This document shows, one piece after another, positions 13,212-13,273 of a stretch of 15,647 nt of DNA. The position numbers and the translations under genes are program-made. The notes under the pieces are model-generated. The model saw nothing but the letters and a program-made list of their open reading frames with translations. It was not told where the DNA came from and made no database searches. The DNA is from a virus (taxonomy: Duplodnaviria > Heunggongvirae > Uroviricota > Caudoviricetes), in the IMG/VR virus record IMGVR_UViG_2671180567_000005. The stretch is one strand, 5' to 3'. The first letter of the stretch is position 1; every line of letters starts with the position of its first letter.

Positions 13212-13273
13212 CGGTCTCGAAAACCGGAGTAGGGGCAACTCTACCGGGGGTTCAAATCCCCCTCTCTCCGCCA
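13212..13273 (+). other. prophage att core: 3'-terminal 62 nt of tRNA-Ser(CGA) (serU-type), not an intact tRNA
   Basis: CGGTCTCGAAAACCGGAGTAGGGGCAACTCTACCGGGGGTTCAAATCCCCCTCTCTCCGCCA: anticodon loop CTCGAAA (anticodon CGA), long class II variable arm, GGGGG/CCCCC T-stem with T-loop TTCAAAT, acceptor 3' strand TCTCTCC plus G plus CCA. No complementary 5' acceptor strand (GGAGAGA) or D-arm upstream. Matches the 3' part of E. coli serU from memory. Confidence 0.8.

Follow-up and report, generated by a model that had tools for sequence, protein, structure and literature searches.

A stretch of viral DNA of 15,647 nt (IMG/VR record IMGVR_UViG_2671180567_000005, Caudoviricetes; hereafter the window) contains, near its right end, what looks like the 3' part of a tRNA-Ser gene without a 5' part in front of it. 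This locus raises the question of whether the fragment marks the place where a prophage meets the bacterial chromosome and, if it does, which end of the prophage this is and where in the tRNA gene the strands were exchanged. Our preferred reading, to which we give a probability of about 95%, is that positions 13089-13273 are the attR site (P-O-B') of a lambdoid prophage of ~50 kb in the E. coli serU gene, which encodes tRNA-Ser(CGA). For the attL site and the integrase gene (int) of the window's prophage, this reading relies on relatives of the window.

A serU fragment between phage cargo and core genes

On the plus strand, positions 13212-13273 read CGGTCTCGAAAACCGGAGTAGGGGCAACTCTACCGGGGGTTCAAATCCCCCTCTCTCCGCCA and are identical at all 62 bases to the 3' part (positions 29-90) of serU in E. 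coli K-12 MG1655, a gene of 90 nt. The identity to K-12 goes on through the 100 nt directly 3' of the fragment, and the 28 nt to its left (13184-13211) show no match to the 5' part of the tRNA. ARAGORN called no tRNA gene in the whole window, no Rfam family reached its gathering score there, and a permissive scan gave just partial tRNA-like matches over the T arm. By the ARAGORN and Rfam results, the fragment lacks the full cloverleaf, with acceptor stem and D arm, of a functional tRNA gene. What it has is the composition of displaced tDNA, in which the 3' part of the tRNA is present and the 5' part is missing. The original prediction had placed a 62-nt tRNA-Ser(CGA) 3' fragment at exactly these coordinates without a 5' half and had expected a tRNA scan to call no intact gene, and both claims held. 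It had also described the span as running from the anticodon loop through CCA, which is correct for the CCA end but not for the start: its first base is the second one in the 5' strand of the anticodon stem, and from there the fragment continues through the anticodon loop (CTCGAAA, 13216-13222), a long variable arm, the T arm and the 3' acceptor strand. No second copy of its first 19 nt exists in the window, even when three mismatches are allowed. The fragment is unannotated in RefSeq.

The features of the window are collected in Table 1. The annotation of collinear relatives bears out a further part of the prediction, namely that phage and effector DNA lie to the left of the fragment and yodB and zinT to its right. 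In these relatives, the chromosome past zinT runs on into msrQP, hiuH and hprRS, the same as in K-12.

Table 1. Positions and strands of features in the window, with the basis of each assignment.
Feature	Position	Strand	Basis or remark
Lambdoid tail module	136-9164	+	RefSeq annotation of collinear relatives mapped without indels; Pfam; ORFs
Minor tail protein, L, C40 peptidase (K-like) and I genes	within 136-9164		part of tail module
sodC (Cu/Zn superoxide dismutase)	2686-3213	-	opposite strand, embedded between tail genes I and J
J	3347-6823	+	tail module
Lom	6892-7515	+	tail module
Tail fibre	7580-9164	+	tail module
T3SS effector cargo, b-region position	9341-12498	+	annotation of 14EC007 and AMSHJX01
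nleB2	9341-10321	+	effector cargo
nleC fragment (truncated)	10355-10642	+	effector cargo
Tail-fibre-assembly fragment	10689-10799	+	cargo region
nleH pseudogene	10963-11874	+	longest ORF in span 191 aa
nleF	11929-12498	+	effector cargo
YkgJ-family pseudogene remnant, short	12914-13002	-	between nleF and P arm
P arm, phage side of attR (123 nt)	13089-13211	+	homology in serU prophages with other cargo
Candidate arm-type integrase site CTTGGAATA	13100-13108	+	repeat count
Second candidate arm-type site CTTGGAATA, inverted	13164-13172	-	repeat count
IHF consensus exact match (WATCAANNNNTTR)	13182-13194	-	regex scan; 18 nt left of core; consensus match only
Displaced original serU 3' 62 nt	13212-13273	+	62/62 to K-12; no tRNA called; empty-site breakpoint 13212
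Probable strand-exchange interval, 19 nt	13212-13230	+	homology start on the left; first attL/attR difference, 13231, on the right
serU-yodB spacer, chromosomal flank, B' side	13274-13551	+	277/278 match to K-12
yodB (cytochrome b), core chromosomal gene	13843-14373	-	annotation in K-12 and relatives
zinT, core chromosomal gene	14716-15366	-	annotation in K-12 and relatives
459-bp block recurring in phage genomes	13093-13551		copies at L009 3004-3462 (ev099), L006 2504-2962 (mEp332), L010 3004-3462 (PhiR70_1) and L019 19747-20205

We compared positions 12700-13800 with 5,426 complete E. coli genomes using megablast (query position 513 is window position 13212), and all 5,426 genomes match some part of this region. 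In genomes with an empty site, which include K-12 and many others, the homology sets in at precisely 13212, where a tRNA-Ser is annotated. The tRNA is uninterrupted in these genomes, and the breakpoint coincides with the 5' edge of the fragment.

Intact serU, integrase and the arms of the attachment site

The left end of the prophage was read in relatives of the window, 14EC007 and AMSHJX01, which are the closest complete genomes (99.6% and 97.6% identity over the window, respectively); seven attL loci were examined in all. An exact look-up of the J protein gave six contigs with 99.8-99.9% identity, of which none is identical to the window and none spans its last 88 nt. In both 14EC007 and AMSHJX01, the fragment has an intact tRNA-Ser(cga) in the same orientation ~50 kb to its left, and the genes follow one another as mtfA, intact tRNA-Ser(cga), int, a DUF4224 gene, ~50 kb of lambdoid genes, nleF, the fragment and yodB, with an exonuclease gene next after the DUF4224 gene at the left end of the prophage. 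The integrase of the relatives contains the Pfam Phage_integrase domain (PF00589) and can be aligned to lambda Int structures. The gene of this tyrosine integrase lies 27-52 nt from the end of the tRNA, beside the regenerated copy. An intact serU and an integrase at the other prophage end had been predicted, and this is where the relatives have them. The prediction of an identical 62-nt core on a complete tRNA-Ser next to int fared less well: a second copy is present in the relatives, but it matches the fragment at 60 of the 62 positions.

This type of integrase is found at serU in 1,092 of the 5,426 complete E. coli genomes, of which only 116 share the cargo-side junction of the window. PGAP marks the integrase as 'frameshifted' in every relative that we looked at. 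An integrase ORF of 341 aa is intact in six of the seven attL loci, and it spans all 329 aa of ST64B Int. We considered the idea that the flag denotes a locked-in prophage and rejected it as unproven, given that the 341-aa ORF is conserved and covers all of ST64B Int; the prophage may be competent for excision today. The integrase gene, at L003 11990-13015, lies outside the window. An alignment of the serU integrases of E. coli, ST64B, KpF5 and Chris1 shows an invariant TFHDLKAKGISDYEG motif, and the family has a Lys at the position of the catalytic Arg311 of lambda Int in the HxxR motif.

On the phage side, P-arm homology in other serU prophages starts at window position 13089 or 13161, and the GC content of the arm is 27.6% vs 49.4% for the window. 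Two exact copies of CTTGGAATA occur in the window (0.14 expected), and both are in the P arm. The same motif stands in tandem, in two to three copies, in the P' arm beside int at the attL of the relatives. Repeats that are distinct from the core are thus present on both arms, as in a lambda-type att site, and the CTTGGAATA repeats are candidates for arm-type integrase sites. The IHF consensus has three exact matches in the 15.6-kb window, two of which (13182-13194 and 13277-13289) flank the core; they are matches to the consensus only and may act as IHF-like sites.

A comparable design is seen in the attP sites of free phages. The integrases of ST64B, Klebsiella phage KpF5 and Citrobacter phage Chris1 are 57-59% identical to the E. 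coli serU type, and the attP of each phage contains the 3' 62 nt of tRNA-Ser beside int, with the same first base as in the fragment. In all three the order is the 62 nt, a conserved motif after CCA, three tandem repeats and the 3' end of int. The tandem repeat varies by phage, with TGAGAAAA in ST64B and CTTGGTATA as a further form, and is CTTGGAATA in the E. coli family; such variation is what one would expect of arm-type integrase sites. We also assembled a predicted attP from the P arm and core of the window and the P' arm of 14EC007 and searched for it in the phage collection. No free phage in the collection had the predicted attP in contiguous form, and none was found with a near-identical E. 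coli integrase; of the two hits at 97-98%, 606R7 and 689R5, we inspected 606R7, which is a prophage record with host flanks.

The differences between the two tRNA copies bear on the position of the crossover. The attL copy and the fragment differ at two positions of the variable arm that pair with each other, and the changes are compensatory: the arm is AGTGGGGGCAACTCCACC in all seven attL loci and AGTAGGGGCAACTCTACC in both the fragment and K-12. The fragment has A13231 and T13242, and all seven attL loci have G and C at these positions (A:T to G:C). In an attL site (B-O-P'), the DNA 3' of the crossover comes from the phage, and in an attR site (P-O-B') it comes from the bacterium. The phage-type pair lies in attL and the K-12-type pair in attR, so the exchange would be expected 5' of 13231. 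Its left limit, 13212, is the start of the homology between attP and attB and is the same base in the attP of ST64B, KpF5 and Chris1. The interval between these limits holds the anticodon loop, CTCGAAA, flanked by the inverted halves of the anticodon stem. From these polymorphisms, we infer that the crossover took place within 13212-13230, around the anticodon loop. The original prediction had the phage integrating at the 3' end of the tRNA gene; the polymorphisms point instead to the anticodon region, and the phage would then supply the 3' two-thirds of the gene.

In the mechanism that we propose, the last 62 nt of serU would also be present in the phage attP, and a lambda-Int-type tyrosine integrase would exchange the strands within the anticodon loop or beside it. 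The expressed serU at attL, the int-proximal end outside the window, would be a chimera of 28 or more bacterial nt at the 5' end and a 3' part supplied by the phage. The original bacterial 3' 62 nt would be left as a non-functional fragment at the tail/effector end, where they would abut the yodB/zinT side of the chromosome.

The absence of the 5' 28 nt of serU is also what a decayed pseudogene would show, if the 5' part had been lost by deletion or by an unrelated insertion with no site-specific integration. We regard this account as very improbable, however: in three independent free-phage attP sites, the tRNA segment starts at the very base where the breakpoint lies, the fragment is preceded by a P arm that is conserved and contains repeated motifs, and relatives have an intact serU and an integrase at the other end of the prophage.

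Another thought, that the junction belongs to some other element which targets serU and recombines in the T-stem/acceptor region, such as a pilV/integrase island, comes from genomes whose homology to the window starts only at 13260, which corresponds to a 14-nt core, and which have an unrelated site-specific integrase and pilV at the junction. Here, however, the homology to the tRNA is 62 nt long and starts in the anticodon stem, with the P arm of the ST64B-type integrase family beside it. The breakpoint position excludes an element of the pilV type, and we give this possibility almost no weight at all. An example of such an element was seen at serU in NZ_OZ121081.1 (L025 2616-4461), with the last 14 nt of the gene as its core, an integrase, pilV and type IV pilus genes. 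The gene serU is therefore targeted at two sublocations by two types of integrase.

Copies of the junction inside phage genomes

At 93-95% identity, a block of 459 bp that runs from the P arm across the 62-nt fragment into 278 bp of serU-yodB spacer recurs inside three free lambdoid phages, ev099, mEp332 and PhiR70_1. Its 278-bp flank matches these three phages and the contig L019 at 268-269 of 278 positions, and the homology breaks off after 13551. We tried ev099, mEp332 and PhiR70_1 as carriers of the attP and rejected them: they hold an attR with host flank in their interior, and ev099 has a canonical lambda attP beside its own integrase. Since ev099 uses the lambda attP, the 459-bp block is not its attachment site.

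Two contigs, L018 and L019, match window positions 1-13551 at 99.85% and then diverge. Past this point come an AraC regulator, the remnant of an IS, a thrW-type attP that has not recombined and an integrase of 386 aa. In L019, the unrecombined attP (~21990-22040) adjoins the gene of the 386-aa integrase (22068-23228) and is located downstream of the tail/effector module; it includes ATTCGTAATGCGAAGGTCGTAGGTTCGACTCCTATTATCGGCACCA, which we take to be the 3' part of the thrW gene for tRNA-Thr. The arrangement in L019 could be one of tandem or recombinant prophages. The block is found in the b-region of free lambdoid phages and of prophages with other integrases (lambda attP; thrW-type in L019).

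Such copies bring up the idea that the fragment in the window is itself a fossil attR inside a phage genome rather than a present junction of prophage and chromosome. The presence of the block at 93-95% identity within free lambdoid phages, one of which (ev099) has a lambda attP, would fit this idea, as would its occurrence in L018 and L019, where the AraC regulator, the IS remnant and a different integrase come after it. However, the homology to these copies stops after 13551, and the window stays collinear with K-12 through yodB and zinT; relatives of the window go on into msrQP and hiuH. The collinearity with the chromosome beyond 13551 refutes a fossil origin for the window, and we would assign it only a minimal chance. 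The fragment also occurs as a fossil in phage genomes and therefore is not, taken by itself, proof of a junction. It counts as one here, and as the attR of our preferred reading, because the sequence is continuous into yodB and zinT.

The fossil block has the chromosomal A..T form of the variable arm and is therefore derived from an attR. Its simplest account is an aberrant excision of the lambda-bio type, followed by lambdoid recombination. It is tempting to speculate that an attR at serU was mobilised in this way, with the fossil as the relic of the excision and lambdoid recombination as the means of its spread, and the balance of the evidence tips slightly towards this view. If it is true, a displaced tRNA fragment is not an always-reliable marker of a prophage end. 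Tools that delimit prophages by tRNA fragments could misplace an end, since the fragment and its host flank are found inside phages.

Comparison with known serU elements

The finding is of a kind already known, an ordinary attR of a lambdoid effector prophage integrated at serU. This gene is a documented hot spot for Sp14/CP-933U, prophages of O145 and O121, ST64B and LT-II phages. The Sakai prophage Sp14 is published as bounded by yodB and tRNA-Ser(cga), and Sp14/CP-933U of O157:H7 shares with the window the serU site, the yodB-side junction, a lambdoid genome and effector cargo at the attR end; homology to the P arm in the O157:H7 serU prophage runs from window position 13161. The cargo differs: an O157:H7 genome has tccP/espJ cargo at the same serU junction, and CP-933U has tccP and espJ at its attR, whereas the window has nleB2, a truncated nleC, a degraded nleH and nleF. 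The integrase of ST64B is annotated as similar to that of CP-933U.

ST64B itself is a Salmonella phage for which insertion in serU has been reported, and the identity of its integrase to the E. coli type is 57-58%. Its attP has the 3' 62 nt of tRNA-Ser, three P' repeats and int. In addition, a gene for an arginine glycosyltransferase of the NleB/SseK family (sb26, L011 1-842) lies by its attP, and the E. coli serU prophage likewise has a gene of this family, nleB2, near its attachment site. Unlike the window, ST64B has another host, another arm repeat (TGAGAAAA vs CTTGGAATA) and another phage backbone.

Escherichia phage SerU-LTIIb (KU052038) is 98.6% identical to window positions 13096-14169, and in its record the same 62 nt are annotated as a tRNA-Ser pseudogene beside yodB. 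Its cargo is related to the LT-IIb toxin, in contrast to the nle effectors of the window. In O121:H19, prophages and integrative elements have both been published at serU.

At a more general level, the Islander paper of 2015 sets out the principle and describes a class of tDNA sites centred on the anticodon (class A). The window junction agrees with this class in having the regenerated tRNA at one end, the displaced 3' fragment at the other and a probable crossover in the anticodon region. We consider it a typical member that does not differ in principle.

What our analysis adds is the anatomy of the site, a likely place for the crossover in the anticodon region, the chimeric serU and the fossil junction in free phages. 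The right boundary of the nleB2/nleF effector prophage is now fixed to the base, and the serU expressed in such lysogens would be a phage/host chimera whose variable arm has G:C instead of A:U. Knowledge of the att anatomy at the level of single bases is of use for annotation and for the design of excision assays.

A published counterpart is from O145:H28, in which a prophage at serU carries nleB, nleF and nleH. In STEC O145:H28, the whole window is matched at 97.5-97.9% with the same gene order, and the differences are at the strain level only, with the backbone of the window differing in the zinT-msrQ spacer. In this spacer, the last 88 nt of the window (15560-15647) are unlike every close relative, all of which have a REP-like sequence there, and no whole-window match among the 5,426 complete E. 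coli genomes goes past 15559. The 88 nt belong to a multi-copy repeat that is present in 1,679 of these 5,426 genomes with a median of 8 copies, and they are probably a small intergenic mobile or repetitive element.
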